From a virus (lineage: Duplodnaviria; Caudoviricetes), in the IMG/VR virus record IMGVR_UViG_3300012532_000003, positions 1 to 55,648 of that record: 55,648 bases of DNA; one strand, written 5' to 3'. Position 1 is the first letter of the stretch. Each line of letters starts with the position of its first letter. The notes beneath the pieces were generated by a model. The model did no database searches. It was not told the DNA's origin and saw only the letters and a program-made list of their open reading frames with translations. This document shows positions 1-55,648 of the stretch, piece by piece. Position numbers and translations under genes: made by a program.

Positions 1-147
1 ACCGATGCTTCCGAGAAGGCCGCTCGCGACGCTGGCGTGGCTGACATCAGCGTCATCGAGGTCGAGGCGATGACATGGGAAGAGTTCGAGCGACGGCTTG
101 AGATGCCGCCAGTACCCGAACTGGGGAGGGCACTAAGAATCCCGTAA
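1..147 (+). CDS. 3' end of a hypothetical protein cut by the window edge
   Basis: Frame 1 is open from base 1 to TAA at 145-147 (TDASEKAARD...EEFERRLEMPPVPELGRALRIP) with GC-rich codon usage. Confidence 0.55.
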   Translation, partial: TDASEKAARDAGVADISVIEVEAMTWEEFERRLEMPPVPELGRALRIP

Positions 148-174
148 AGGGCACCTATTCCAAGGAATGCTATC

Positions 175-321
175 TTGAAACCAACACCATGCCCTGTCTG
201 TGGTTGGCCGGACGGGTTTCACGACACTGAGGATCGGAACGGGCAACACCGTTCGCATGTTGTTCCGCGACATCTTGTGCGCCCAAGCAACAGCGCACTG
301 AGGAAGGACTGTTCAAAATGA
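175..321 (+). CDS. 48-aa Cys/His protein (CPVC...H), possible Zn-binding
   Basis: AAGGA RBS, TTG start, MKPTPCPVCGWPDGFHD...; stop overlaps the next ATG (ATGA). Below the ORF-track cutoff. Confidence 0.5.
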   Translation: MKPTPCPVCGWPDGFHDTEDRNGQHRSHVVPRHLVRPSNSALRKDCSK

Positions 322-545
322 CCAAGTCACCAAAGCTTGACAGCCTCCTGAGTACCAACACCGGTTGGCATAAGAGCAGCCGGAGCGGGCCATACTCTGA
401 TAACTGCGTTGAGGTTGCGTTTCTACCGGAAGGCGTAGTTGCAGTACGCGACTCGAAAAACCCAACAGGACCCGCGTTGATTTACACCCAATCCGAATGG
501 GATGCCTTTATCCTTGGTGCCAAGGATGGAGAGTTCAACATCTGA
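318..545 (+). CDS. DUF397 (BldB-family) protein
   Basis: WHKSSRS...NCVEVA...VAVRDSKNPTGPAL.YT..EW.AFI.G.K.GEF signature; GAGGAAGG RBS. Confidence 0.92.
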   Translation: MTKSPKLDSLLSTNTGWHKSSRSGPYSDNCVEVAFLPEGVVAVRDSKNPTGPALIYTQSEWDAFILGAKDGEFNI

Positions 546-784
546 TGGGTTACTGGCGAAAGTCTTCCTACAGCGGCGGCGCGGGTGACTGCGTTGAGGT
601 CTGGCGAAAGAGTTCTCGTTGTGAGTCGGGACTCTGTGTCGAAGTCACCACCTGCAACTGCGATGATCACACTGTTCTGGTACGTGACAGCAAGGACCCA
701 CACGGGCCGATTCTAAGCTTTGGTCTTTCCCAATGGAAAGCATTCACAGATGGCATCAAGAACGGCGAGTTCGACAGGAGGTAA
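545..784 (+). CDS. DUF397 (BldB-family) protein with duplicated N-terminal motif
   Basis: ATG at 545 (TGATG coupling); WRKSS..CVEV twice, then VRDSKDPHGP.L.F...W.AF..GIKNGEFD. Confidence 0.9.
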   Translation: MGYWRKSSYSGGAGDCVEVWRKSSRCESGLCVEVTTCNCDDHTVLVRDSKDPHGPILSFGLSQWKAFTDGIKNGEFDRR

Positions 785-791
785 GAACGTC

Positions 792-896
792 ATGCGGAAG
801 TTGGCACTTGCAGTGCTCGGGCTCGGCGCCGTTGCCTTGCTTATATACAAAAACAAGGACCGGATCGCTCTGGCAGCCCACAGAAACAAGGAATAG
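792..896 (+). CDS. 34-aa single-pass membrane protein
   Basis: AGGAGGT RBS; MRKLALAVLGLGAVALLIYKNKDRIALAAHRNKE. Confidence 0.6.
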   Translation: MRKLALAVLGLGAVALLIYKNKDRIALAAHRNKE

Positions 897-958
897 GCCA
901 GAAGGCTCTCGTCTAAAACCAAAGAGCAAGCGCCTGTTCCAGCTCTCGTCTAAACTTA

Positions 959-1000
959 GGAGTCAAAGGAAACGGTCTGTAAAACCGTCGCGTAATACTA
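959..1000 (+). pseudogene. tRNA-Tyr(GTA) remnant (part of D arm, anticodon arm, variable arm)
   Basis: GAGTCAAAGGA-A-ACGGT-CTGTAAA-ACCGT-CGCGTAA matches the tRNA-Tyr core; no acceptor stem or T arm. Confidence 0.55.
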
Positions 1001-1003
1001 CAC

Positions 1004-1053
1004 TGTGGATAATCCGTGTCAGAACCTAAGAGCCAGTATAGCGATTATCCACA
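1004..1053 (+). other. 11-bp perfect inverted repeat; each arm contains a perfect DnaA box
   Basis: TGTGGATAATC (1004-1014) / GATTATCCACA (1043-1053). Confidence 0.7.
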
Positions 1054-1055
1054 AC

Positions 1056-1128
1056 GCCCCCATAGTTCAGCGGAAAGAACAGTGGACTTCTAATCCTCAG
1101 GTCACAGGTTCGAATCCTGTTGGGGGTA
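1056..1128 (+). tRNA. tRNA-Arg(TCT)
   Basis: GCCCCCA/TGGGGGT acceptor, GTTC/GAAC D stem, CTTCTAA loop, ACAGG-TTCGAAT-CCTGT; one T-T mismatch in the anticodon stem. Confidence 0.93.
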
Positions 1129-1143
1129 CGCACTCTTATATCT

Positions 1144-1228
1144 GGAGAGGCCACCCGATTGGCGACGGGCGCAGTCTTGAAAACTGTTAGAGCGTGACGC
1201 TTTGGGGGTTCAACTCCCTCCCTCTCCG
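1144..1228 (+). tRNA. tRNA-Ser(TGA)
   Basis: GGAGAGG/CCTCTCC acceptor, GCAGT-CTTGAAA-ACTGT, long variable arm, G73. Confidence 0.92.
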
Positions 1229-1397
1229 CATGAAGAAGTGTCTATTCATAGTGGTAGCTCTGCTCACGCAAACCATTCCGTATTTTGTCCACCACCTGTG
1301 GCACCACCAATCATTCATTTCATAGTACGGTAGCCCACTTGAGGATAATCCCGTTTAAACGTACGAAAGGTGTCCCAATAAGTACTACCAGGCCGTA

Positions 1398-1472
1398 CGG
1401 GTACTAGCTCAGTTTGGTTAGAGCGCTCGCTTTGGGAGCGAGAGGCCGGGCGTTCAAATCGCTCGTACCCGA
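1398..1472 (+). tRNA. tRNA-Pro(TGG)
   Basis: CGGGTAC/GTACCCG, GCTC/GAGC, CTCGC-TTTGGGA-GCGAG, TTCAAAT T loop. Confidence 0.95.
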
Positions 1473-1473
1473 C

Positions 1474-1579
1474 GTAGATTCCGTTCAGATGCAAGGTCTG
1501 ACAATAGCGGCACATTGGAAGAGATGTGCGAAAACTTAGGGAAAGTGGCAGCACGACGCCTGACCCTCGCGGAATCTAC
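1474..1579 (+). ncRNA. Candidate 106-nt multibranch RNA
   Basis: 10-bp closing stem GTAGATTCCG/CGGAATCTAC; inner hairpins TCAGA/TCTGA, GCACAT/ATGTGC, AGGG..GGC/GCC..CCCT; fills the space between two tRNA units. Confidence 0.65.
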
Positions 1580-1582
1580 CTT

Positions 1583-1648
1583 GTCCCTATGACGTTCCTG
1601 GCGGAGCGCCCCGCCTGCAAAGCGGGTATTTATCAGGGGTTAGGGCCT
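1583..1648 (+). pseudogene. tRNA-Cys(GCA) lacking the T loop and 3' T stem
   Basis: GTCCCTA/TAGGGCC acceptor (1 mismatch), CCCGC-CTGCAAA-GCGGG, T73 discriminator; AGGGGT runs straight into the acceptor 3' strand. Confidence 0.75.
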
Positions 1649-1666
1649 CGCGGAGAAAATTAAGCC

Positions 1667-1740
1667 GGTGTTGCGCGAGGGGGCTTGCCTTGGGACACCT
1701 GGCCAGGTAACCATCAGATAGGCTCAGCTCGCGCAACACC
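1667..1740 (+). ncRNA. Candidate 74-nt rod/hairpin RNA
   Basis: 13-bp perfect stem GGTGTTGCGCGAG/CTCGCGCAACACC enclosing GCCT/AGGC and an ACCTGGCCAGGT apex. Confidence 0.6.
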
Positions 1741-1810
1741 TCCCAGATTCATAATAACAAAGGTTGGATAATGTCTCTCTTATTGAATCAAAGCCAAAGG
1801 TCAAGGTAAA

Positions 1811-1885
1811 GCTCCCATAGCCCAACATGGCAGAGGCGCCTGACTTAAGATCAGGATAGTGTAGGTTCGAGTCCTACTGGGAGCA
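1811..1885 (+). tRNA. tRNA-Leu(TAA), short variable loop (bldA-equivalent anticodon)
   Basis: GCTCCCA/TGGGAGC, CCTGA-CTTAAGA-TCAGG, GTAGG-TTCGAGT-CCTAC, A73. Confidence 0.93.
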
Positions 1886-1925
1886 CCCAGTGCCCGTTAA
1901 CCACATCTACTTCACTTAACGGCTT

Positions 1926-1999
1926 TCGGGCGTAGCTCAATTAGGCAGAGCCGATGATTGTTAATCATCTTGTTGTAGGTTCGAATCCTGCCGCTCGAG
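1926..1999 (+). tRNA. tRNA-Asn(GTT)
   Basis: TCGGGCG/CGCTCGA, GATGA-TTGTTAA-TCATC, TTCGAAT, G73. Confidence 0.93.
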
Positions 2000-2051
2000 C
2001 GCGACAAATGTGTATGTTGACTGGGATAAGACGTCTAACGAAAAGGAAATC

Positions 2052-2411
2052 ATGGGATTCAACGTAGCTGAAAACGACCTAACCGCTCTCGCCGACATCG
2101 AGGTCAGGAAAGAACTGTTAAAAAAAGTTCAAGATAGGCTTGTAGCCGAAAAGATGGCCATTGCTGATGCACTCGGTGAGGACACCTTTTCTGAAGGTGA
2201 AGTCATTACCTTCAAGAAGAAATTCCAAAAAGATGGAATATCGTATTCATTCGCAGCCATCAAGGCGGGCGGCAAGTGGTATGCGACCGGTAGCAACAGC
2301 ACCAGCATCAATAGCTGGGAAGAGCTGGTCACGTTCTTAGTCACCGGCAATATCCCTACAACATCCTTTACCAAGATGGTCCACGTCAACGAACAAGAGG
2401 AAGAAGCGTAG
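2052..2411 (+). CDS. Conserved-type actinophage hypothetical protein
   Basis: AAGGA RBS before ATG 2052; YSFAAIKAGGKWYATG...SWEELVTFL motif. Confidence 0.75.
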   Translation: MGFNVAENDLTALADIEVRKELLKKVQDRLVAEKMAIADALGEDTFSEGEVITFKKKFQKDGISYSFAAIKAGGKWYATGSNSTSINSWEELVTFLVTGNIPTTSFTKMVHVNEQEEEA

Positions 2412-2415
2412 GGTT

Positions 2416-2449
2416 AACCCCCGTAGTTCAATGAACAAACAGAACAACA
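2416..2449 (+). repeat. Degenerate duplicate of the 5' third of the adjacent tRNA-Arg
   Basis: AACCCCCGTAGTTCAA...ACAGAACAACA occurs at 2416 and again at 2449. Confidence 0.85.
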
Positions 2450-2521
2450 ACCCCCGTAGTTCAACGGACAGAACAACACCCTCCTAAGGTGTCAGTCCCG
2501 GTTCGATTCCGGGCGGGGGTG
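2450..2521 (+). tRNA. tRNA-Arg(CCT)
   Basis: ACCCCCG/CGGGGGT, ACACC-CTCCTAA-GGTGT, CCCGG-TTCGATT-CCGGG. Confidence 0.94.
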
Positions 2522-2538
2522 CTCGACCACACATAGAA

Positions 2539-2934
2539 ATGGGACGAAACATAATGAGCTGGGTAGACACTGCGTATCACAGAGTTCGTTACCTTCGCGA
2601 GGCGACCGACGCTGCACACGGCACCGAAGAATGCTCCGGAACCGTGGACGGGATCTATTGTGAGAAATGCGCTCACCTCCAGGTCCGCTGGGAGAAGTTC
2701 TACCGAGACCTGCCGAGGTGGGTGCTGCTACTGTTTGTGGCGTTCATCAGTGTCCGACACCCGAGCTTAGCGCTCACACCTGAGGAGTGCAAGATCAAAA
2801 AGAAAATCTCATTCATCAAGCCAATGTTCTACTTAGCAGTGCTTGTTGTGATTGTCTGGATGGCATACCGGTCTGGAATCTGGCCTACGCTGAACAATCT
2901 TATCGGTAAAACCCTCGTTGGTGTGGCTCACTAG
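2539..2934 (+). CDS. Membrane protein with N-terminal Cys/His cluster
   Basis: 131-aa ORF; H...C...CEKC and two hydrophobic segments; start uncertain (2539 or 2554). Confidence 0.65.
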   Translation: MGRNIMSWVDTAYHRVRYLREATDAAHGTEECSGTVDGIYCEKCAHLQVRWEKFYRDLPRWVLLLFVAFISVRHPSLALTPEECKIKKKISFIKPMFYLAVLVVIVWMAYRSGIWPTLNNLIGKTLVGVAH

Positions 2935-2967
2935 GACAAAACGGACATATCTCCGACTGTCGAGCCG

Positions 2968-2996
2968 TTGACACAATCAAGATTAAGTGTTAAGCT
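2968..2996 (+). promoter_or_regulatory. Housekeeping-sigma promoter for the Ro60 gene
   Basis: TTGACA-17 nt-TAAGCT, 48 nt upstream of the GTG start; the same hexamers recur at 14577-14606. Confidence 0.7.
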
Positions 2997-3044
2997 TTGG
3001 TGAACGGACACATTCATTTGAAAAAGTGAGTCGAGAGGATCAAA

Positions 3045-4649
3045 GTGTCAAATCCATACACGAGATTTCTAAGCACACCAGTTCCGCAGAGTGAACAAGA
3101 AGACCCACGCCAGGTAGCAAACAGCGCCGGTGGGTTCTCTTTTGTGATCGATGACAAAGCGAGACTGGAACGGTTCCTGATTCTTGGCACAGACGGCGGA
3201 ACATATTATATTAACGAGCGAGACCTCACGAAGCAGAACGTTGATTTCCTAGTTGACCTCATCAAGCGCAACGGAGAGCTAGTCCTTGAGACAGCTCATG
3301 ACATCTCCGTTGAGGGCCGTGCTTACCGTAACTCCGCAGCCATTTTTGTCATGGCCTTGCTTTTCAGGTATGCTTCTGACGAGGTAAAGTCCAAGGCAAA
3401 GGCTCTTTTTCCCAAGATTGTTCGCACATCTACTCATCTGTTCGAGTTCGCCAAATACATCGAGCTGATGGGTGGCTGGGGACGCGCGAAGCGTTCCGTC
3501 GTGGCGAGCTGGTACCTGAGCAAGACACCGGACAAGCTGGCTTACCAGGCGGTAAAGTACCGTCAGCGCGATGGCTGGACACACCGTGACCTGTTCCGGC
3601 TTTCACACCCAAAGGGTGTCAACCAGGAACTCGGCAACTTCATTCTCGGAAAAGAAGTTGGTCCTGGCGGTTTTCCAGGTATCATTTGTGGTTTTGCTAA
3701 TGCTCAGGCTTCGGAAAACGTTTATGACCTGATCCAAATCCTTAATGATTACCCTAACTTGCCTTGGGAAGCACTGCCAACTCAGTTCCATAAGGAACCA
3801 GATGTATGGCGAAAGCTTTTCTACAATGGCCAGATCACTGGTCAGGCGCTTGTGCGTAATATTACTCGTCTCGCTCGCATTGCTGCTTTTGATGACATGG
3901 TTTTCACTGCTGACTATGCTAGTAAGCTTGTTGACGAGGAAATGATCGCGCGTACACGCTTACACCCAACTAACTACCTAAACGCGCTCGTGGTTCACGA
4001 GGAAGGGCAGATAGCTCGCAATCGCTCCACATGGTGTTCTGGTAGTCGAGAGAGGAGCTGGACGACCGTACCAGCCATCAGAGACGCGCTCAACGAAGGG
4101 TTCCACCTGGCATTCAAGCACGTTGAACCAGCCAACAAGCGCACACTGTTGGCACTTGATGTGTCAGGATCAATGTCTTACCCCGCGATAGGCATTGACC
4201 TGTCGGCTGATCAGGTTGGCGCGGCAATGGCCATGACCGTGGCTCGGACCGAGCCGTACTACACCGTTATGGGGTTCTCGACAGAGTTCAAGGACCTGGG
4301 AATCTCGCCTGGTCAAAGCCTGAGCCAGGTACTCCAAAAAACCACCAATATGAACTTTGGCGGCACGGACTGCTCGTTGCCCATGGTTTGGGCGCATCGT
4401 AAAAGGATAGAAGTCGACACGTTCCTGGTCATTACGGACAATGAAACGTGGGCCGGAAGCATACACCCACACGTGGCACTCCGAAACTATCGACAGGCAA
4501 TGGGCATTGACGCACGGTTGGTTGTCGCTGGGGTGGCATCGAATGGTTTCACAATAGCTGACCCAACCGATGCGGGAATGCTCGATGTTGTGGGCTTTGA
4601 CTCTAACGTACCAAAGGTAATAGCCGATTTTTCGGCCGGAAGATTTTAA
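3045..4649 (+). CDS. rsr: Ro60/TROVE-domain RNA-binding protein (Rsr) with vWA domain
   Basis: QVANSAGGFSF, RFLILGTDGGTYY, GWGRAKR, AYQAVKYRQRDGWTHRDLFRLSHP, LALDVSGSM (MIDAS), GGTDCSLPM, ITDNETW, MLDVVGFD. Confidence 0.97.
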   Translation: MSNPYTRFLSTPVPQSEQEDPRQVANSAGGFSFVIDDKARLERFLILGTDGGTYYINERDLTKQNVDFLVDLIKRNGELVLETAHDISVEGRAYRNSAAIFVMALLFRYASDEVKSKAKALFPKIVRTSTHLFEFAKYIELMGGWGRAKRSVVASWYLSKTPDKLAYQAVKYRQRDGWTHRDLFRLSHPKGVNQELGNFILGKEVGPGGFPGIICGFANAQASENVYDLIQILNDYPNLPWEALPTQFHKEPDVWRKLFYNGQITGQALVRNITRLARIAAFDDMVFTADYASKLVDEEMIARTRLHPTNYLNALVVHEEGQIARNRSTWCSGSRERSWTTVPAIRDALNEGFHLAFKHVEPANKRTLLALDVSGSMSYPAIGIDLSADQVGAAMAMTVARTEPYYTVMGFSTEFKDLGISPGQSLSQVLQKTTNMNFGGTDCSLPMVWAHRKRIEVDTFLVITDNETWAGSIHPHVALRNYRQAMGIDARLVVAGVASNGFTIADPTDAGMLDVVGFDSNVPKVIADFSAGRF

Positions 4650-4658
4650 TGAAAAGCT

Positions 4659-4822
4659 CCAAGATGTCCACAGGAGGTCGCAGAGCAGACGTGCTCAATA
4701 TTCGGACAGTGGCGACATTGTTCGATGAAGACCAATAAAGAGTTGCCAACACGCGGATAATCCATGGGTAGTCCGCTGAGGGCGCTAAAAGCTGAGTACA
4801 AAGCCCTAGGAGTACATCTTGG
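4659..4822 (+). ncRNA. Candidate 164-nt multibranch RNA directly downstream of rsr
   Basis: Closing stem CCAAGATGT/ACATCTTGG; inner stems GAGCA/TGCTC, TGGCGAC/GTTGCCA, GCGGA/TCCGC, AGGGC/GCCCT. Confidence 0.6.
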
Positions 4823-4827
4823 CCCTT

Positions 4828-4889
4828 GCCTCCGTATCCCAACCTGATTCAAGATCAGGAAGTTGTGCGTTCGAATCGCACCGGAGGTA
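4828..4889 (+). tRNA. D-arm-less tRNA-Leu(CAA), 62 nt (may be a pseudogene)
   Basis: GCCTCCG/CGGAGGT, only TATCCCAA where the D arm should be, CCTGA-TTCAAGA-TCAGG, GTGCG-TTCGAAT-CGCAC, A73. Confidence 0.75.
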
Positions 4890-4890
4890 C

Positions 4891-4936
4891 GCTTGAACCA
4901 AAGATCGACTTTTTTCCATCCTACACACGTTCAAGC
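4891..4936 (+). ncRNA. Spacer hairpin with C/A-rich loop
   Basis: GCTTGAAC/GTTCAAGC stem; loop contains CCATCCTACACAC. Confidence 0.5.
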
Positions 4937-4939
4937 TTA

Positions 4940-5013
4940 GCCGGCGTAGCACAACCTGGAAGTGCATCTCACTTGTAATGAGAAGGTTAAGAGTTCGAAT
5001 CTCTTCGTCGGCT
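4940..5013 (+). tRNA. tRNA-Thr(TGT)
   Basis: GCCGGCG/CGTCGGC, GCAC/GTGC, TCTCA-CTTGTAA-TGAGA, TTCGAAT. Confidence 0.94.
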
Positions 5014-5015
5014 CT

Positions 5016-5066
5016 GACACCAACCAAGGACGAGTCCACATCTACATTTCCACGAGCGTTGGTGTC
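5016..5066 (+). ncRNA. Spacer hairpin with C/A-rich loop
   Basis: GACACCAAC/GTTGGTGTC stem; loop contains CCACATCTAC, identical to the loop of the 1894-1922 hairpin. Confidence 0.5.
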
Positions 5067-5073
5067 TCAAAGC

Positions 5074-5196
5074 TATCCTAAGCCAAACGTGTGCGCGACA
5101 AACCGATTAGCTGGCCGCTTAGGATAATTTTTGATAACAGAATATGATCCTAGGCCAAATCTAGCGCGACAAACCGATATGCGACCGCTTAGGATA
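5074..5196 (+). ncRNA. Candidate 123-nt pseudo-symmetric rod RNA built from two ~50-nt repeats
   Basis: Two copies of ATCCTARGC-CAAA-X-GCGCGACAAACCGAT-Y-CC-GCTTAGGATA; X1 pairs with Y2 and Y1 pairs with X2. Confidence 0.65.
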
Positions 5197-5198
5197 AT

Positions 5199-5272
5199 GC
5201 GCTTCGGCGGGCAGGTGGTCCGGGCCTGTCTTATAAACAGGTTTGAGTAGAGTTCGATTCTCTAGGGGCGCA
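5199..5272 (+). tRNA. tRNA-Ile(TAT)
   Basis: GCGCTTC/GGGGCGC, CGGGC/GTCCG D stem, CCTGT-CTTATAA-ACAGG, TAGAG-TTCGATT-CTCTA, A73. Confidence 0.85.
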
Positions 5273-5313
5273 CCTTGCACCACAGTTATGTCAGCGTAAG
5301 AAACGGAGAACAG

Positions 5314-5535
5314 ATGATCGTGCGCCACCTTGTGGATACGGTTCTGGCCCAGCCATGCCCACCAAATCAAATTTGCCAAGAAAAACCAAAACTGCCAGCA
5401 TTCAACTATCCGCTCATAGCAGCATGTGCCATTGTTGCGCTCGTGCTCATCAGCGCTTGGAAGCACTTGCCAAAAGGTGTGCTAGTCTTCGGTGCACTGA
5501 TGCTCGGAGCTATTTTTTATTACCTAGTTAGGTAG
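5314..5535 (+). CDS. Small two-TM membrane protein
   Basis: GGAG RBS, ATG 5314; two hydrophobic helices. Confidence 0.7.
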   Translation: MIVRHLVDTVLAQPCPPNQICQEKPKLPAFNYPLIAACAIVALVLISAWKHLPKGVLVFGALMLGAIFYYLVR

Positions 5536-5550
5536 GAAGGTCCGAAAAAC

Positions 5551-5640
5551 GTGAGTAAGATCGTAGAAAACTTCCTCGGAATTACAATTTTCCTCGGCAT
5601 ATTATTTGTATTACACTTCACATTCCACTGGCCTTGGTAA
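5551..5640 (+). CDS. 29-aa membrane peptide
   Basis: AGGAAGGT RBS, GTG start; MSKIVENFLGITIFLGILFVLHFTFHWPW. Confidence 0.5.
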   Translation: MSKIVENFLGITIFLGILFVLHFTFHWPW

Positions 5641-5653
5641 AAATAGCAAAATT

Positions 5654-5725
5654 TGGCTCGTCGACTAATTGGCAGGTCCTCAGATTTTGGTTCTGATTGT
5701 CGAGGTTCGAGTCCTCGCGAGCCAG
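5654..5725 (+). tRNA. tRNA-Gln(TTG)
   Basis: TGGCTCG/CGAGCCA, TCAGA-TTTTGGT-TCTGA, CGAGG-TTCGAGT-CCTCG. Confidence 0.93.
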
Positions 5726-5730
5726 CGTAT

Positions 5731-5801
5731 GGGCCGTAAGCATTAAGGTGATGCTCCTGACTTTTAATCAGGAGAAGTGGGATCAATACCCTCACGGCCT
5801 A
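5731..5801 (+). tRNA. tRNA-Lys(TTT) with non-canonical T loop
   Basis: GGGCCGT/ACGGCCT, GCAT/ATGC, CCTGA-CTTTTAA-TCAGG; T loop ATCAATA. Confidence 0.8.
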
Positions 5802-5829
5802 CTGCCTTATACAAAAGAGGAGGGTTTCA

Positions 5830-6039
5830 ATGCAGGACACTATGACCATCGTCTCGTTCCAGTACCGGCTTGGCCAAGACCTGTTCGGCACCTCAATCGA
5901 TGTTGAAACCGAGCAGTGGAACGACTACTCACCGGCAGAGAGGTTAGAATACCTGGAAAACGCTGCGCTGGACGAGATCCGAGATGACATTGTTATCGAG
6001 GAAGACTCAATCATCGAAGAACAAGACGAACCGGACTAA
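5830..6039 (+). CDS. Small, very acidic hypothetical protein
   Basis: GAGGAGG RBS; 69 aa, D/E-rich C-terminus. Confidence 0.75.
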   Translation: MQDTMTIVSFQYRLGQDLFGTSIDVETEQWNDYSPAERLEYLENAALDEIRDDIVIEEDSIIEEQDEPD

Positions 6040-6048
6040 GGAACCCCG

Positions 6049-7278
6049 TTGAGCACCAGAAAATCATTCGCGAACAACATAGCCAACAGAGCAAAAAGGA
6101 CCGGATGGCCGGTTGTACGGCTAGCTTCAGGAGAGTACGCGATTACCTGCCCGGGAGGACATCCACTCAACGGCGAAACGTGCCCTGGGACAAAAATCCA
6201 AGTGCACTTAACACCATCCGATGTTAACGCCGAAAAAACAGTCATGCGATCTCTTCGCAAGCATGGTTTCTTCGAGGCCGAAATTACGAGGATGAAATTG
6301 CGAAGCGATGACAGTAGAGAGAAAATCATGACAGACCGTCAGCGCACCGAACGTAGGGTGCAAGAAATCACCGACCATGCCAGGATGGTAAACAAAGCTG
6401 CTGGAGCATACGGAACCTCCACGGCTACGTATGACGAAATCCTGGCCCCCCACCCCTCACCAATTACCTACCCAAGGGTGTTAGTTACACCTGAGCTTGC
6501 TACGAAGCTGCTTGAGCTGAACACGAACAACAGGCCACTTCGTAGGGCAGATGTGGACCACTGGAAGTCAATTCTCCTCAACGGCAACTATCACTACACG
6601 CACCAGGGCATTGCCCTCGATGTCAGGCCGGTTCTTCAGGACGGACAAAACCGGCTCAAGGCCATCGAGGAAAGCGGTATCTCGGTGCTGATGATGGTGA
6701 GCGCCGGCATGCCGGTGGCCAACTTCCCAGTGTTGGACGTCCAGCGGCGACGAAACTACACGGACGTCCTCTTCAGGGCCGGGTACCACAACGCGACAAA
6801 GCTCGGCTCGGCCGCCAGGATGCTGTACTTGTACGATCACCGGCTGGTTCTTCCGTGGAACGAGCGGGTTACCAACGAGCAGGTCGAGCAGGTTGTTGCC
6901 GAGTCCGTGCCTCTGTTGGGCAAGGCGGTCAACGTTGGCCACGAGATGTACAAGACGTTCCGAATCATCACAACACCAGCGGCGGTCGGTACCTACCTGC
7001 TGTGGCGTGAGGTTGGCGAGGAACACCCGTTGGTGCAGGAGTACATCTACGGCCTCCGGACCGGTGCGAACATGGACGAGTTCGACTACAGGTTCGCGCT
7101 TCGTCGGCTCGTGTTGAACACCTCCGGGCGTCGTGACCAGGCCGAGCACTTGGCGCTCTTCCTTAAGACATGGCGCCACTTCGCCACCGGAAAGAAGACA
7201 AGCTCAACGCTTCGGGCACTGGTCAAATGGTCAAAGGCTGAGAAGATGCCTGATGTCTACATTCCAGGAAGCGAATAA
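6049..7278 (+). CDS. HicA-like N-terminal domain fused to a ParB-like/DGQHR domain
   Basis: N-term GW.V.....G.Y.I..P.G...TPSD......MRSLRKHGF; central VTPELA..LL..N.NNRPL...GIA.D....LQDGQNRL.AI.ESG. Confidence 0.7.
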   Translation: MSTRKSFANNIANRAKRTGWPVVRLASGEYAITCPGGHPLNGETCPGTKIQVHLTPSDVNAEKTVMRSLRKHGFFEAEITRMKLRSDDSREKIMTDRQRTERRVQEITDHARMVNKAAGAYGTSTATYDEILAPHPSPITYPRVLVTPELATKLLELNTNNRPLRRADVDHWKSILLNGNYHYTHQGIALDVRPVLQDGQNRLKAIEESGISVLMMVSAGMPVANFPVLDVQRRRNYTDVLFRAGYHNATKLGSAARMLYLYDHRLVLPWNERVTNEQVEQVVAESVPLLGKAVNVGHEMYKTFRIITTPAAVGTYLLWREVGEEHPLVQEYIYGLRTGANMDEFDYRFALRRLVLNTSGRRDQAEHLALFLKTWRHFATGKKTSSTLRALVKWSKAEKMPDVYIPGSE

Positions 7279-7288
7279 TTGAATAGGT

Positions 7289-7360
7289 GGCCCTCGTGGA
7301 CTCAACGGAGTCCCCCCGCTCAGGGTATTGGAAGCGTAGGTTCGAGTCCTACCGGGGGCC
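7289..7360 (+). ncRNA. tRNA-like element without a canonical anticodon arm
   Basis: GGCCCTCG/CGGGGGCC acceptor-like stem, GGACTC-AACG-GAGTCC hairpin, perfect T arm GTAGG-TTCGAGT-CCTAC. Confidence 0.7.
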
Positions 7361-7390
7361 CTGGTAAGGCACAGTGAGGTAAGGGTTGAC

Positions 7391-7609
7391 ATGGACACAA
7401 CGGTAGAGTTGCACGTGAAGGAGGCGGCAGATAGATGGCGTAACCTCGTAGATCAACAGCAGGCCGCTAGACGCGAGTTACGACATGCTATCATTAAAAC
7501 ACTACTCAACAACTACTCAATGACTACAATTTCAGATTTAACCTCAATAAATCGAACAACGTTATACTACATTATTTGGGGAAAGAAGGGTCGAAATATA
7601 GGAGAATAA
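7391..7609 (+). CDS. Small helix-turn-helix DNA-binding protein
   Basis: SMTTISDLTSINRTTLYYII HTH pattern. Confidence 0.7.
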   Translation: MDTTVELHVKEAADRWRNLVDQQQAARRELRHAIIKTLLNNYSMTTISDLTSINRTTLYYIIWGKKGRNIGE

Positions 7610-8070
7610 TGACAGGAAAAGCTCAAGCTCAAATCGAGCAAATATACTCCTATATGGATCAGAACAGCGAGATAATAGAGAATCCCAATGTCGTAGATGA
7701 TTTTATTGGCAAACCAATCCAGGTTTGGAAAGGCTTCACCAGAGACATCTCGACGGCATTGGGATACACTAACCCGGTAACCAGCAAGGCAGTGCGAAAT
7801 CTCACCATAGTTGGTTGCATTAGTCTCATTCGACATGGCGCGGCCGGAACCCCAAGCACATATCAAATGCTACGACAACCAACGTACGATGAGTATGCTA
7901 AGCTCCAAGAACGATCTACTACCATTGATCGGGAAAGAGCACCAACTCCCTGGCAGATAACCCAAGACTCCATAAACAGGCTCCATACCCTGGTACGAGA
8001 CCTAGAGCGAAGGGTGGATAGACTAGAAAATGTCGCGAAAAGTCCTGAAGTACGTGATATTGGCAAATGA
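7609..8070 (+). CDS. Putative winged-helix protein with C-terminal coiled coil
   Basis: GGAG RBS and TAATG coupling; helix-turn-helix-wing-like segment; LVRDLERRVDRLE. Confidence 0.6.
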   Translation: MTGKAQAQIEQIYSYMDQNSEIIENPNVVDDFIGKPIQVWKGFTRDISTALGYTNPVTSKAVRNLTIVGCISLIRHGAAGTPSTYQMLRQPTYDEYAKLQERSTTIDRERAPTPWQITQDSINRLHTLVRDLERRVDRLENVAKSPEVRDIGK

Positions 8071-8302
8071 TGAAGAGTCAACTGTCGCGTTTTCCGGGAA
8101 GATTCTCCATGTTGCTCCGGCGAACCACAACCTGATCGAAATTTACGCCGAGCAGGACGATGAACAACCAGAACAAAATCACACTTTTCGAGTTCTAGGC
8201 ACTGGGCACGACGTCCCGTTTGGAAGCTCTCACGTTCAGTCGGTACGGTCATCTATGGGCGTTATCTTCCACCTCTACGAATTGGACTACTCAGATGGTT
8301 GA
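8030..8302 (+). CDS. Conserved-type phage hypothetical protein
   Basis: RKVLKY...ILHVA...IYAE...FRVLGTGH...VIFHLYE pattern. Confidence 0.75.
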   Translation: MSRKVLKYVILANDEESTVAFSGKILHVAPANHNLIEIYAEQDDEQPEQNHTFRVLGTGHDVPFGSSHVQSVRSSMGVIFHLYELDYSDG

Positions 8303-8582
8303 TTCCTCCTTCGAGGAAGCTCGAAGATGCCCAAAATGTGAGCAGCCAGGAAGGACCGTGACCAACAGGCCAATGCAAGGTGGGTCTAACATGCTCACCA
8401 TCCTCTGCGAAAATAAGAAATGTCGATGGTTCAACACGCCTTGGGTTGTACAAATCATGCCGGACGGCACGGTGGCCAAACCACAAGGACACGACAAGTT
8501 TTTTCGTGAGATACCAGATCGTACCGAAGAGGTGCGAGCAGCCATTGATAGAGACCTAAGACGACAAACCGGACAAGAGTAA
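8295..8582 (+). CDS. Zn-ribbon hypothetical protein
   Basis: CPKC...CENKKC; ATG 8295 overlaps the upstream gene end. Confidence 0.7.
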   Translation: MVDSSFEEARRCPKCEQPGRTVTNRPMQGGSNMLTILCENKKCRWFNTPWVVQIMPDGTVAKPQGHDKFFREIPDRTEEVRAAIDRDLRRQTGQE

Positions 8583-8663
8583 AACTCAACAGCACTGAGT
8601 TCCCGGCCCTTTGGCTACTAAGTTTGGAACACAAAATGTTCCGACAACGTAGCGAAGGGCCGA

Positions 8664-11621
8664 ATGTTTTCTCTGTACCCATTCCAGGAAGAAGCGGTCG
8701 ATTTTCTCTGGGACAAGAAGGCGGTTCTTCTAGGGGACGATATGGGCCTCGGAAAGGCCCAGCCATTATCTGAACCAGTACTAACACCAACAGGATGGAC
8801 AGAAATTGGAAAACTAAGTGTTGGTGACTATGTTATTGGATCGAATGGAAAGCCAACTAAGGTCAACGGAGTTTACCTACAAGGAACTAGACCAATATGT
8901 GAAGTTTGGTTTAGTGATGACACTTTTGTTCGTTGCGACATTGACCATTTATGGTCAGTTATTACACCGAACAACAAGCGAAGAGGTAAGCCATATGAAA
9001 CAATCTCAACTAGAGAAATGATAAGGTTAGGACTAAAGAGTTCGTCGGGAAACAATAGGTACTACGTGCCAAATGTTGAACCAGTACAATTCATACAAAG
9101 TGACATTTCACTTGATCCATATTTGGTTGGTGTGTTCATAGGAAACGGTTGTCTATCACACGGTACATACCTATCAACTGACCATGATATTGTGAGTTCG
9201 TTAATAATACCAAACGGCGTGACATTTAGGTTAGAAAAGGATAACGGATACTCTGGCGACTATCGTTTCAGTGGAATAGTAAGACACTTACGTGAACTTG
9301 GGTTAATGAACAAAAAAGCAGAAGAAAAACACATACCAATCCAATACAAGTGGGGAGACATAGAGACTAGATACGCTTGCTTACAGGGAATTCTAGATAC
9401 AGATGGAAGTATAGTAAAAAGTAGAGGTAAACCAGCCACAACGGTAGAGTATAGCACAGTAAGTAAGCAGCTATCCGAGGATGTTGAACACATTGTTAGG
9501 TCATTAGGAGGAAAAAAAGTCACAAAGATTCCAAAGTATAAAGGAGAAACGAGAACAGGTCAACTGTTTTACCGAATGACATTAAGCTTACCAACACCAT
9601 TTGTACCATTCCGACTTAAACGCAAGTTGGACAACTGGATCCATAGATCGAAATATGAACCAGTTCGAGCCATTAAAGCCATTCAGTACATCGGTTATGA
9701 ACCATGCGTTTGCATTTCAGTTGAAGCTAATGACTGCCTATATGTTACAAGAAGCTTTACGCTAACCCACAACACAGTGACCGCCATTGCCCTTGATCGT
9801 AGAAGACGAGAAAAACAACCGAACCTAGTTGAAAAGCCAAAAACGTTAGTTGTTACCTACCTTGGCATTTTCTCCTCCTGGCTGAGCCACTTCGAAGACT
9901 GGGCGCCGGATCTCCGGGTCATGGCCATCAACAGCAAGGACCGAACGCCGTTCTTGGAGTCCATAAAGAACAACGAAGCGGATGTTTTCGTCTGTCACTG
10001 GCAGTCGTTACGGTTGCTCCCAGAGTTGGTTAACACAACGTGGTTCCATATTATTGCAGACGAATGCGTTATAGCCGGAACAAGAATAAGCACACCCAAA
10101 GGTTTACAAAATATCGAGGATTTGCAAAACGACGATGTTGTTTACGGATATGATCATAAACAGCAAAAAGTTGTTGAAACAACTGTGAAACACACGTTCA
10201 GCAGAACTACAAGATCACAACTTTTCAAGATAAATAGTACTGTTATGACTGGTAACCATCCAGTTTGGACCAACGAATCGAACTACATCAATGCTTCGGC
10301 ACTGAACAGCATGGAGCACACGCTGTTAAGATTGACAAATGGAAACAGTGACGTTGACTTGCGAATTGTGCCTGAACCAATTTCATTACATGATAGACAT
10401 AGCAAACCAGGAATTGAAAATAGCAATAGAAGTAGATGGTTCGGCACACCTTTTGACGAGCAGGAAACAAATAGACCAAGAGAAGGACAAATATTTAATC
10501 TCCAACGGATGGACAGTGTTTCGATTCACGAACCTCGAAGTTATGACAAACCCAAAGTTATGCGCACAGAAGGTATTCGAGTATATAACATCGAGACGGG
10601 AACAGGAAACTATTTCGCCAACGGAATTCTAGTGCACAATTGCCATGCACTACAAAACAGGAAGTCAAAACAAAGTGTAGCACTTAAATTACTCAAGACC
10701 TGTTTCAAAACTGGACTGTCCGGAACGCCGGCCTTCGACAAGCCGGACGACCTCTGGAGCATTCTTAACTGGCTGTACCCGGACTTCTGGTCGTCGTACT
10801 GGCGTTATTACAACCGCCACATTTTGTACGTTGAGAACAGCGGGTACCGAGTAATCGTCGGCGTGAGCCACGCCAAAGAGCTGCAAGAACAAATGAGCGG
10901 CTTCTACGTTCGTCGCCGCAAAGAGGAAGTGCTCAAAGAGCTACCCGACAAGTACTACAGTACAATTGAGGTAGACCTACACCCAAGACAGATGCGCGTT
11001 TACGAACAGATGCGCAAAGACATGATAGCTTGGGTGGGCGAGCATGAAGATGAGCCGGTTGACGCTCCGGTTATTATTGCACAGCTCACCAGGCTGCAAC
11101 AGTTTGCCAGCGCGTACGGCGAGATCGATCAGGAAACGAACCGGATGGTGCTCTCTGAGCCATCGGCAAAACTCACTGCCGTTATGGATCTCATTGAGTC
11201 CACCGATGAGCCAGTCGTTATCTTCAGTCAATTTGCTCAGGTCATTCGCCTTTTGCAAAAGAGGCTTGAAAAAGCCAGTATATCTCATGGCATCTTCATT
11301 GGCGATACCTCACCAGAAAAACGTTCCAGAATCATTGAAGACTTTCAGAATCAAAAAATTCAGGTGTTTGCCGGGACCATCAGCGCTGGCGGCATTGGTA
11401 TTACTCTTACCGCCTCCTCAACCGTGGTGTTCACTGACAGATCCTGGTCGGCTAGCCTTAACCGGCAGGCTGCCGACAGGCTCCACAGGGTGGGGCAGAA
11501 GAACGCGGTGCATGTGATTGACATCATTGCCAGAGACACCATTGATGCTAAACGAATCGAACACATCAACCTGAAGTGGAGCTGGATTCGCGAGCTGCTT
11601 GGCGAGGAAGACTACGACTGA
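8664..11621 (+). CDS. SNF2-family DNA helicase with two inteins
   Basis: LYPFQ, DDMGLGK|T, IIADE|CH, GLSGTP, VIFSQF, GITLTAS, QAADRLHRVGQ. Confidence 0.95.
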   Translation: MFSLYPFQEEAVDFLWDKKAVLLGDDMGLGKAQPLSEPVLTPTGWTEIGKLSVGDYVIGSNGKPTKVNGVYLQGTRPICEVWFSDDTFVRCDIDHLWSVITPNNKRRGKPYETISTREMIRLGLKSSSGNNRYYVPNVEPVQFIQSDISLDPYLVGVFIGNGCLSHGTYLSTDHDIVSSLIIPNGVTFRLEKDNGYSGDYRFSGIVRHLRELGLMNKKAEEKHIPIQYKWGDIETRYACLQGILDTDGSIVKSRGKPATTVEYSTVSKQLSEDVEHIVRSLGGKKVTKIPKYKGETRTGQLFYRMTLSLPTPFVPFRLKRKLDNWIHRSKYEPVRAIKAIQYIGYEPCVCISVEANDCLYVTRSFTLTHNTVTAIALDRRRREKQPNLVEKPKTLVVTYLGIFSSWLSHFEDWAPDLRVMAINSKDRTPFLESIKNNEADVFVCHWQSLRLLPELVNTTWFHIIADECVIAGTRISTPKGLQNIEDLQNDDVVYGYDHKQQKVVETTVKHTFSRTTRSQLFKINSTVMTGNHPVWTNESNYINASALNSMEHTLLRLTNGNSDVDLRIVPEPISLHDRHSKPGIENSNRSRWFGTPFDEQETNRPREGQIFNLQRMDSVSIHEPRSYDKPKVMRTEGIRVYNIETGTGNYFANGILVHNCHALQNRKSKQSVALKLLKTCFKTGLSGTPAFDKPDDLWSILNWLYPDFWSSYWRYYNRHILYVENSGYRVIVGVSHAKELQEQMSGFYVRRRKEEVLKELPDKYYSTIEVDLHPRQMRVYEQMRKDMIAWVGEHEDEPVDAPVIIAQLTRLQQFASAYGEIDQETNRMVLSEPSAKLTAVMDLIESTDEPVVIFSQFAQVIRLLQKRLEKASISHGIFIGDTSPEKRSRIIEDFQNQKIQVFAGTISAGGIGITLTASSTVVFTDRSWSASLNRQAADRLHRVGQKNAVHVIDIIARDTIDAKRIEHINLKWSWIRELLGEEDYD
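8757..9773 (+). mobile_element. Class 3-type intein (339 aa) with LAGLIDADG endonuclease, in Walker A
   Basis: Starts AQPL (Ala1), ends LTHN/T; W in block B (DHLW), C in block F (CVCISV); VGVFIGNG and LQGILDTDG. Confidence 0.92.
10065..10640 (+). mobile_element. Intein (192 aa) in Walker B, no in-frame endonuclease
   Basis: CVIAGTRISTPKG...MTGNHPVW...VYNIETGTGNYFANGILVHN/C. Confidence 0.92.
10339..10632 (+). CDS. DUF559/Vsr-like endonuclease overprinted in the +1 frame of the intein
   Basis: YMIDIAN.ELKIAIEVDGSAH...DQEKDKYLISNGWTVFRFTNLEV. Confidence 0.8.
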   Translation: METVTLTCELCLNQFHYMIDIANQELKIAIEVDGSAHLLTSRKQIDQEKDKYLISNGWTVFRFTNLEVMTNPKLCAQKVFEYITSRREQETISPTEF

Positions 11622-12303: not shown

Positions 12304-13562
12304 CTCCGGAAGAGTACCTTGAGCTTGGGCTCACTCATTCTATCCACACGTCCGCCCGACGGTCGTTTAGAAGCTGCCGTCGCCGTTGGGACTGGGCGTA
12401 TCGACAAATGTATTATCCAAAGGTGGAAGCAGCTCCTTTGGAGTTCGGTGTCGCTTTCCATAAGGCTATGGAGGCGTTCTATGAGCCGTCGCTATGGGCT
12501 AACCCTGACCACTTCATCATAGGTCAAGGGTTGGCCCTCGTTGCGTTTAGACAGACCTGCGAAGCGCAACTAAAAAAATACAAACGGTTGAATGGCGACC
12601 CTGATGTAACGGTTATTGATGAATACAAAGAGCGGGTCAAGCTCGGTCTGAACATGATCCGCTACTACACCGAACGAATGAGCACACAGTACGACAAGGG
12701 ATTTACCCCGGTACGGGTCGAGGTGCCCTTCGAAGTCTTGATCAAGTCACCACAGGGGGCACCGCTGTGGTGCAAATGCGACTCGTGCTGGCAGAGGTTT
12801 TGCAACGGAAACACCATCAAGAAAATCGTAAAGTCAGATCCATCGCTCACATGGAACAACCTTTTTGTAAACCATCCCGAACTTTACCGAACTTCAGCGT
12901 GGGATGGCCTACCAGTGACCTACGGTGGGCGGCTCGACGCGCTGGTACAGGATGACATTGGTAGATACTGGATTGTGGATTTCAAAACAACTTCTCGAAT
13001 ATTGGATGAAGATGCCGAAGCATCGTTCTTACAACTTGATGATCAGATAGGAAGTTACTGCTGGTCTTTACGGGAAGTTGGGATACCTACTGCTGGCTTT
13101 ATCTATATCGAGATCAAGAAGGCGTATCCTCAACCTCCGGAAGAGCTATCGAGACTTTACAAGGGGCGGAAATACTCGACGAACAAACAGTTCCTAACAA
13201 CATACGACATCTTCCATGACCACGTGATTCTTTACGATCACGATGCCTACGCCACCGGGCTTTATGACGACCATCTTGCCTGGCTTAAGGCTGAAGGTCC
13301 AAAGTTCCATCAGCGCCACCAAATCCACAAAAACGACCACGAGCTTGACGAAATCGGTCATAACATTTGGCTAGAGGCCCAAGACATTCTGCAAAACCCA
13401 AGAGTTTATCCACAACCAGGTCGATTCTCCTGTACGACGTGCTTGTACCGACAGCCATGTCTTGGGGTGAACATGGGTGAAGACTATCAGTGGACACTAG
13501 ACACACTCTTTGAGAGACGTGACAGGCACTACTGGGAGGACGGTCCCCCCTCGACAGAGTAA
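12300..13562 (+). CDS. Cas4/RecB-like PD-(D/E)XK exonuclease
   Basis: SCRRRW, FG.AFH.AME, GRLDALV, IVDFKT, QIGSY, C-terminal CTTCLYRQPC. Confidence 0.9.
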   Translation: MTPEEYLELGLTHSIHTSARRSFRSCRRRWDWAYRQMYYPKVEAAPLEFGVAFHKAMEAFYEPSLWANPDHFIIGQGLALVAFRQTCEAQLKKYKRLNGDPDVTVIDEYKERVKLGLNMIRYYTERMSTQYDKGFTPVRVEVPFEVLIKSPQGAPLWCKCDSCWQRFCNGNTIKKIVKSDPSLTWNNLFVNHPELYRTSAWDGLPVTYGGRLDALVQDDIGRYWIVDFKTTSRILDEDAEASFLQLDDQIGSYCWSLREVGIPTAGFIYIEIKKAYPQPPEELSRLYKGRKYSTNKQFLTTYDIFHDHVILYDHDAYATGLYDDHLAWLKAEGPKFHQRHQIHKNDHELDEIGHNIWLEAQDILQNPRVYPQPGRFSCTTCLYRQPCLGVNMGEDYQWTLDTLFERRDRHYWEDGPPSTE

Positions 13563-55502: not shown

Positions 55503-55525
55503 CCAATTTACCAATCCCGTCCCTG

Positions 55526-55648
55526 TTAAGCCAATTTACCAATTTATCAAGATCAACTTCTTTCTCATACCTATTAAGCCAATTTACCAATTTATCAAGA
55601 TCAACTTCTTTCTCATACCTATTAAGCCAATTTACCAATTTATCAAGA
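55526..55648. repeat. 48-bp AT-rich tandem repeat, at least 2.5 copies, running off the window
   Basis: TTAAGCCAATTTACCAATTTATCAAGATCAACTTCTTTCTCATACCTA at 55526, 55574, 55622; partial copy at 55501. Confidence 0.95.

Follow-up and report, generated by a model that had tools for sequence, protein, structure and literature searches.

What is the role, if any, of two related hairpins that lie in tandem between two tRNA genes of a tailed phage, a short distance downstream of a gene for Ro60? The window analysed is a full record, a single contig of 55,648 bases. The primase, family A DNA polymerase, helicase and ribonucleotide reductase are encoded on the + strand of its left half, and all long open reading frames (ORFs) from 1 to ~30 kb are read from that strand; the tape-measure protein, minor tail proteins, portal, terminase and endolysin are encoded on the − strand of the right half. 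The G+C content is ~50%, and the DNA is present in nine runs of soil metagenomes belonging to six studies. A DUF397 protein, the G+C content and the nearest relatives of the Ro60 protein suggest an actinobacterial host, perhaps Streptomyces.

The tRNA cluster comprises ten genes recognized by ARAGORN, spanning 1056-5802 and all on the + strand. The spacer under study is bordered upstream by tRNA-Thr (UGU, 4940-5014, +; Rfam tRNA 66.5 bits) and downstream by tRNA-Ile (UAU, 5199-5274, +). The latter was called by ARAGORN only, and no Rfam tRNA match was obtained for it even at E ≤10 in a 661-nt search. Read by eye, position 8 is a G, the D stem contains a G.G mismatch and the acceptor stem includes two G.U pairs; 5199-5274 may be an atypical tRNA or a tRNA-like RNA. 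The Ro60 orthologue, a protein of 534 aa with TROVE and Ro60-type vWA domains, is encoded at 3045-4649 (+) and was identified by Pfam (vWA_Ro60 PF25045, 1.5e-66; TROVE PF05731, 2e-33) and by phrog_850 (7.3e-95). By tblastn its relatives were found in 357 phage records, mostly of Mycobacterium and Streptomyces phages, and the best match in these records was the 'Ro-like RNA binding protein' of Streptomyces phage Emma1919 (57% identity). The closest relative is carried by a soil viral contig, L045 (61% identity). In related phages, too, Ro60 is usually found within tRNA clusters. Here the twin element starts 425 nt 3′ of the Ro60 stop codon, on the same strand and inside the cluster. No function could be assigned to the neighbouring ORFs from NCBIfam, Pfam or ESM Atlas.

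Two units with shared sequence had been described in the earlier note, and the description holds: units 5074-5127 and 5147-5198 (52-54 nt) align with 45 of 59 columns identical. The blocks perfectly common to both are ATCCTA.GCCAAA, the 15-mer GCGCGACAAACCGAT and CCGCTTAGGATAAT, and the arms form inverted pairs of 9-10 bp, ATCCTAAGC with GCTTAGGAT and ATCCTAGGC with GCTTAGGAT. Fold, inverted repeat and alignment agree on unit 1 (+) as a hairpin whose 10-bp stem (5074-5083 with 5117-5126) closes a loop of 33 nt and which folds alone at −15.6 kcal/mol (z −2.18). Unit 2 (+) is, by fold and alignment, a hairpin with a 9-bp stem (5147-5155 with 5187-5195, one G.U) and a 31-nt loop (−12.1 kcal/mol, z −1.66). 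The 15-mer is repeated exactly at 5093-5107 and 5164-5178 (+); it occupies the middle of each loop when the units fold as twin hairpins and forms the sides of an 8x8 loop when they fold together as a rod. When unit 1 was used as a blastn-short query against the window, unit 2 was recovered over 36 nt at 89% identity (E 5e-4) and nothing comparable was found. A third large-loop hairpin, with a stem of ~10 bp and a loop of ~31 nt, is located at 5016-5066 (+) and starts 2 nt after tRNA-Thr; together with the twin element it fills the inter-tRNA gap 5015-5198. The element had been said to end 2 nt 5′ of tRNA-Ile, which is correct: its end falls at 5196-5198 and the tRNA begins at 5199 by ARAGORN. 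A claimed third copy of a shared 10-mer fared less well, as GCGCGACAAA does recur at 1999-2008 but the recurrence is not significant. With up to one mismatch, five matches were counted in the window against 4.1 expected, and 39 of 100 shuffles reach the observed five.

Nine columns differ between the two copies inside the units, and eight of them are confined to two windows, 5 and 7 columns wide, a clustering with p = 0.0024 in 20000 simulations, the window sizes having been picked post hoc. The ninth difference is an A to G change in the 5′ arm of unit 2, where pairing is kept as G.U on the + strand. The AU-rich spacer of 19 nt between the units (5128-5146, +) becomes the apical cap in the rod. 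Neither flank carries a second copy of it, and the spacer and both flanks are unrelated in sequence, so that the copies comprise the hairpin only. This is not what a simple recent tandem duplication leaves. The signal of constraint rests on two copies, and each variable block could be the product of a single mutational event.

Several other features of the cluster and of the window were recorded. A hairpin with perfect 11-bp arms lies at 1004-1053 and ends 2 nt 5′ of tRNA-Arg; each arm contains an exact TTATCCACA, inverted and 28 nt apart, and a third exact copy is found at 13406 (three copies against ~0.4 expected by our own count). We take TTATCCACA to be an E. coli-type DnaA box. A large-loop hairpin at 1326-1397 ends at tRNA-Pro. 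Between tRNA-Pro and tRNA-Leu, at 1667-1740 (+), the arms GGTGTTGCGCGAG and CTCGCGCAACACC form a perfect 13-bp inverted repeat around 48 nt; it lies in the ORF-poor stretch 1474-1810 and is likely a structured RNA, with no Rfam match. At 2416-2470 (+) the first 22 nt of tRNA-Arg (CCU) are duplicated 33 nt upstream with 91% identity, a partial tRNA duplication. A weak tRNA-model match with a good T arm (26.8 bits, gathering 29) was observed at 7290-7360 (+), at the end of a 409-aa ORF, with no ARAGORN call. The motif GGATAAT occurs 12 times in the window against 4.4 expected, a number reached by 0 of 100 shuffles. Six of these occurrences are in non-coding parts of the tRNA cluster on the + strand (1007, 1343, 1766, 4755, 5122 and 5192), those at 5122 and 5192 being in the 3′ arms of the two units, and no shared −35-like element was found upstream of the six. 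At 55522-55648 a 48-nt tandem repeat (2.6 copies, 98% identity) runs into the contig end and may be terminal or assembly-breaking.

The predicted fold of the twin element on the + strand is a single long rod, as had been proposed. For 5070-5200 (+) the rod is the minimum free energy (MFE) structure at −39.2 kcal/mol (z −3.94), and 0 of 200 shuffles are as good. From the outside in, it consists of a 10-bp outer stem, CGUGUG:UAUGCG plus CG:CG, an 8x8 internal loop with CGACAAAC on both strands, CG:CG plus UUAG:CUAG, UGGCC:GGCCA, UAGGAU:AUCCUA and the AU-rich cap. The individual helices are ~4-11 bp each, ~40 bp in total, broken by the 8x8 loop. The inner stem had been given as 9 bp; it does form in the MFE structure, but as 5+6 bp and not as 9 continuous ones. 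The rod persists when 5015-5198 is folded whole (−54.0 kcal/mol, z −4.44), an energy matched by 0 of 200 shuffles. Mean pair probabilities from the partition function are 0.997 for the outer stem and 0.709 for the inner arms. The twin-hairpin alternative finds no place in the predicted ensemble, where pairing of the arms within a unit has a probability of 0.000 whether the temperature is set to 30 or 37 °C. On a growing transcript the predicted minima are, in order, the unit 1 hairpin, a central hairpin in which the 3′ arm of unit 1 pairs to the 5′ arm of unit 2, and the rod, which means that a strand-exchange route to the rod exists. On the − strand the fold is no more stable than those of shuffles (z −1.27, with 19 of 200 at least as stable), and as single-stranded DNA the element gives z −3.04. 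The + strand folds far better than the − strand because of its G.U pairs. This predicted strand bias fits an RNA read from the + strand, the strand of all neighbouring genes.

Does the pairing between the units exceed chance? The earlier note had spoken of cross-compensating halves, and the answer depends on what is measured. The variable blocks (5088-5092, 5108-5114, 5160-5163 and 5179-5184) were randomized either by shuffling or with random letters, 1500 trials per mode. A whole-sequence MFE as low as or lower than the observed one was obtained in 71% of the shuffled and 32% of the random trials; with the rod arms enforced (observed −37.8) the figures were 88% and 51%, and the advantage of the rod over the twin fold (observed −37.8 vs −29.0) was matched in 20% and 12%. 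Whole-fold energies are therefore no better than those of randomized blocks, whereas a targeted duplex test on the loop halves, designed after the pairing had been seen, favours the cross-unit partners: −11.5 kcal/mol across units vs −5.3 kcal/mol within them. In 5000 trials a cross-unit duplex as low or lower arose in 3.7% and 3.9%, and a cross minus intra difference as low or lower in 1.6% and 1.9%. These duplex models give a weak hint of cross-unit covariation between the halves. The twin fold of the real sequence is weaker than 99% of block shuffles and 83% of random draws, suggesting that the loops are rather unstructured. Since randomized blocks still give equally stable rods, the rod follows largely from tandem hairpins with identical arms, and the symmetry of the element is mostly a by-product of tandem hairpin duplication.

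Relatives of the element were sought at the level of nucleotide sequence, covariance model and gene neighbourhood. A blastn search of 4700-5700 against 50,697 phage records matched tRNA-Thr only. The exact 15-mer is found in 44 IMG/VR loci, as a single copy in each; a covariance model built from both units (R1) gave 34 matches in these loci, all anchored on that 15-mer. Two loci, L031 and L036, are hairpin-like but belong to unrelated operator-like repeat arrays, and they were rejected as relatives. No relative was detected by R1 in seven phage or viral Ro60 loci, three helicase relatives and 80 bacterial Ro60 loci, the last yielding one weak match (12.8 bits, E 3.9). A scan of viral and metagenome contigs with the Ro60 protein returned one contig, found twice (L045 = L049). 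No relatives were found of the neighbouring 409-aa ORF, the helicase relatives L053-L055 contain neither tRNAs nor the element, and an arm-only gapped pattern retrieved three IMG/VR loci, all unrelated. In 401 sampled Actinomycetes genomes only chance-level short matches were seen (best 34.6 bits, E 0.019 per genome). A dispersed REP/MITE-like repeat finds no support, with only two copies in the window and none beyond chance in the 401 genomes sampled. Metagenome contigs of four runs are identical wherever they cover 4600-5700 and so offer no variants, and there is no RNA run among the nine soil-metagenome runs (six studies) with the locus. The element is a genuine orphan, and the folding models indicate that it probably acts at the RNA level.

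Ro60 had been named in the earlier note as a possible partner, with no mention of the Ro60 gene itself. The gene 425 nt upstream on the same strand now speaks for such a partnership; against it stands the lack of a Y RNA motif and of a YrlA match. Chen et al. (2014, PMC4201824) report YrlA-like RNAs from 254 bacterial species and 22 phages, encoded on the strand of Ro60 and at most 4 kb from it; Y RNAs of bacteria and phages are placed by them within 2-4 kb of the gene, again on its strand. GNCGAAN0-1G is located close to the 5′ end. They also describe at least two Y RNAs in each of the three characterised species (3/3), a single M. smegmatis precursor that is processed into both Y RNAs, and one Y RNA class that is a long hairpin (YrlB/Yrn2-type). 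The element resembles bacterial and phage Y RNAs in lying within ~2-4 kb of Ro60 on the same strand and in having its 5′ and 3′ ends paired around internal loops or a large bulge, a trait that is predicted only, with a 10-bp terminal stem in both the rod and the unit folds; the existence of several Y RNAs per locus and of a long-hairpin class is also in keeping with it. Unlike YrlA, in which a tRNA-like T arm, an acceptor-like hairpin and a D arm are set inside the Ro60-binding stem, the element has no tRNA-like T/D module and no GNCGAAN0-1G near the 5′ end. A regular-expression scan of 1-9000 found neither this motif nor CGAA on the + strand within 5015-5198, where the nearest strings are GCCAAA, CGAC and CGAU. 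The YrlA model (RF02553) gave no match at E ≤10 over 4640-5300 or at E ≤1 over 1-8000, and in the whole window at gathering threshold the element has no match to any Rfam family. Judged by sequence, the element departs from Y RNAs in both motif and conservation, and it is not filed as YrlA.

A published parallel is offered by Thermus phage phiLo. According to a 2025 report (PMC12135203), the phiLo Ro60 binds two RNAs encoded adjacent to it, Yrl1 and Yrl2; Yrl1 has two hairpins with the conserved motif in a large bulge, Ro60-RNA complexes of 1:1, 2:2 and higher stoichiometry are formed, and a dimeric assembly with Yrl2 was observed by cryo-EM. Like Yrl1 as described there, the element adjoins a phage Ro60 gene and is composed of two hairpins, each with a stem round a large loop, a likeness in described layout. 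In contrast to Yrl1, which lies upstream of Ro60 and contains CGAA, the element lies downstream, between tRNAs, and offers CGAC and CGAU only.

The element also differs from the Y-like RNAs of the nearest Ro60 loci, to which it shows no sequence or model similarity. In eight related loci that were scanned, the Rfam YrlA model scores 27-38 bits in four (L045, L046, L050 and L051, which include phages Emma1919, Sparky and ET08; gathering score 69) and finds nothing in L047, L048, L052 and L056. In other actinophage Ro60 loci the Y-like RNAs are tandem copies with common end sequences, a pattern that speaks for the Y-RNA reading of the twin element. The repeats are spaced 84 nt (D1) and 148 nt (D3) apart in Mycobacterium phage Sparky, 146 nt (D1) in Streptomyces phage Emma1919 and 131 nt (D3) in L045. 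In Emma1919 (L046) five non-coding + strand stretches upstream of Ro60, at 1012, 1165, 1310, 2120 and 2209, start with GGGUCGGAU, which resembles the vertebrate Ro60 site GGUCCGA, and end near AUAUCCG; two of the five are touched by the Rfam YrlA model, below threshold. The Y RNA set of this phage group may be larger than annotated. In L045 a YrlA-like RNA is found at 96-208 (37.6 bits), and the region 780-2200 (+), upstream of Ro60, contains several T-arm-like motifs and two tandem RNAs starting with GCGAGCCGG, which are not called as tRNAs by ARAGORN. Downstream of Ro60, L045 has a different closed structured RNA (z −4.97) followed by ORFs, and no such pair of units. Two resemblances to L045, an 11/14 agreement of ACCGAUUAGCUG in unit 1 with the 5′ end of its YrlA-like RNA and a CGCGA-N2-AAC string shared with its downstream RNA, were rejected as being within chance by a rough count. 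Also rejected as a Y RNA motif was a GGUCCGA at 5539, which belongs to the ribosome-binding region ahead of a 29-codon ORF and shows no structure (z +0.38). This ORF (5550-5639, +) has a GTG start preceded by AGGAAGG, encodes a hydrophobic peptide and lies between an 86-aa ORF and tRNA-Gln.

Another candidate RNA in the vicinity of the gene has to be considered as a partner of this Ro60. At 4808-4914 (+) we observed a D-arm-less tRNA-like element with its core at 4828-4890, 160 nt after the Ro60 stop. It combines an acceptor-like stem of 6 bp, a stem of 5 bp that closes a 7-nt loop, and a T arm (GUGCG UUCGAAU CGCAC), and its core is set in a bulged outer stem followed by U6. There is no ARAGORN call for it, and its Rfam match is antisense only. 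The layout recalls that of Deinococcus Yrn1 as described by Chen et al. (PMC4201824). It is a better-looking candidate Y RNA for this Ro60 than the twin element, which means that Ro60 need not use the latter. The stretch directly after the Ro60 stop (4659-4822, +) is strongly structured as well, with a 9-bp closing stem (CCAAGAUGU with ACAUCUUGG), and a z of −3.27 was obtained for the fold of 4650-4925; L045 has a closed structured RNA at a comparable position, directly downstream of Ro60, with an unrelated sequence.

Taken together, we tentatively propose, as a reading that is possible rather than probable, that the element is a non-coding RNA which is set free by tRNA processing and bound by the phage Ro60 in the manner of a Y RNA. 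The sequence itself gives the repeat, its predicted folds and their strand bias, as well as the Ro60 gene and the tRNA boundaries; transcription, processing, Ro60 binding and stoichiometry we infer as follows. The element, made of two diverged copies of one hairpin module, would be a structured RNA read from the + strand within a long rightward transcript that carries the tRNA cluster and Ro60. Because stems abut both tRNA processing sites, normal tRNA end-processing would release an RNA with a stem at each end: tRNA-Thr would be matured at its 3′ end (5014) and RNase P would cut at 5198/5199, freeing a spacer RNA of ~184 nt (5015-5198) whose ends are stem-protected. Strand exchange between the modules would then give a single rod of ~123 nt in which the internal loop is a symmetric 8x8. 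The spacer RNA would act as a Y-RNA-like ligand for the Ro60 whose gene ends 425 nt upstream; its modules are two and equivalent, and it could accommodate either a pair of Ro60 rings or one dimer. T4 species 1 and 2 are stable small RNAs co-processed from a phage tRNA cluster, with no function known for them. The element is similar to them as a structured non-tRNA RNA that lies between phage tRNA genes and would be freed by the enzymes of tRNA processing, and dissimilar in that they are not known to be linked to Ro60. A more elaborate version seems doubtful to us, namely that the element represents an undescribed type of Ro60 partner RNA: a pseudo-two-fold rod made of one module in two copies, displaying the 8-nt strand CGACAAAC twice across the bubble, holding two Ro60 rings head to head, and cut from a tRNA precursor, which would link Ro60 either to the supply of phage tRNAs or to protection from tRNA nucleases of the host.

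Of the competing explanations, the one that survives best is that the element is an inter-tRNA spacer structure concerned with precursor handling only, its duplicated hairpins serving as leader or trailer and insulating the folding of the tRNAs, blocking exonucleases or positioning RNase P/E, with no link to Ro60. It draws on the other large-loop hairpins that abut tRNA 5′ ends in the cluster, at 1004-1053 (tRNA-Arg) and 1326-1397 (tRNA-Pro), on the hairpin 5016-5066 that fills the remainder of the spacer, and on the absence of a Ro60-type motif. It leaves unexplained why a 15-nt loop sequence is invariant beside scrambled loop positions, and the other cluster hairpins are without the core of the twin element. 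We regard this spacer function as unlikely, though a serious contender.

A local duplication of one hairpin, neutral or nearly so and functionless in itself, would account for there being only two copies and no homologue in any search, and for a rod no more stable than with random variable blocks. The copies, however, span the hairpin without spacer or flanks, unlike those of a simple tandem duplication, and the differences between them are clustered; we think that neutrality is a rather poor bet.

Still less probable is an RNase III-type site, where the rod would be cut to part the Ro60/tRNA-Thr transcript from the downstream part. Hairpins processed by RNase III have about two turns of double-stranded RNA, often with an internal loop. 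The rod may resemble the RNase III sites of T7 early RNA, it dominates the predicted ensemble, and several short helices and an 8x8 internal loop are predicted in it. Yet the tRNA ends already give processing sites 2 nt away on both sides, and neither the direct-repeat design nor the conserved loop sequence is required for such a site.

We give as little credence to a site acting at the DNA level, in which four 9-bp sites alternating in orientation and two direct 15-bp repeats would constitute an operator, an origin-like or a partition-like array. The arm starts are 42, 30 and 40 bp apart, ATCCTAAGC is repeated in an intergenic operator-like array of an unrelated viral contig (L151), and single-stranded DNA of the element also folds (z −3.04). 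The strand asymmetry (z −3.94 on + vs −1.27 on −) stands against this, operator half-sites ~33 bp apart are unusual, and neither a sigma-70-like promoter (−35/−10 hexamers 16-18 nt apart) nor an intrinsic terminator (a short GC-rich hairpin with a U run) was found within 5015-5198 in a scan of 1-9000, which also counts against a DNA site. Unit 1 is followed by U5, but its loop of 33 nt compares with the 3-8 nt that define a terminator. The arms were tried as DnaA boxes and rejected, as they agree at 7/9 positions only, a level common in the window (175 matches vs 150 expected).

The 6S-like open-promoter mimic sequestering RNA polymerase, suggested in the earlier note from the rod and its central symmetric bubble, is scarcely credible: no Rfam 6S match was obtained at E ≤10 (4640-5300), at E ≤1 (1-8000) or at gathering threshold (whole window), and 6S RNA is a ~180-nt rod with a large bubble, larger in both respects than the ~123 nt and 8x8 bubble of the element, for which no relatives were found.

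The preferred reading, a Y-RNA-like ligand of the phage Ro60, would have consequences beyond this locus. Ro60 genes are common in actinophages, and RNA partners are known for very few phages. If the element does not bind Ro60, it merely joins the other structured spacers of phage tRNA clusters and is of little wider interest. If it does, Ro60 recognition would need neither the GNCGAA motif nor a tRNA-like domain, phage Y RNAs could be products of tRNA processing, and Thermus phages would not be alone in having two-module RNAs that dimerise Ro60.
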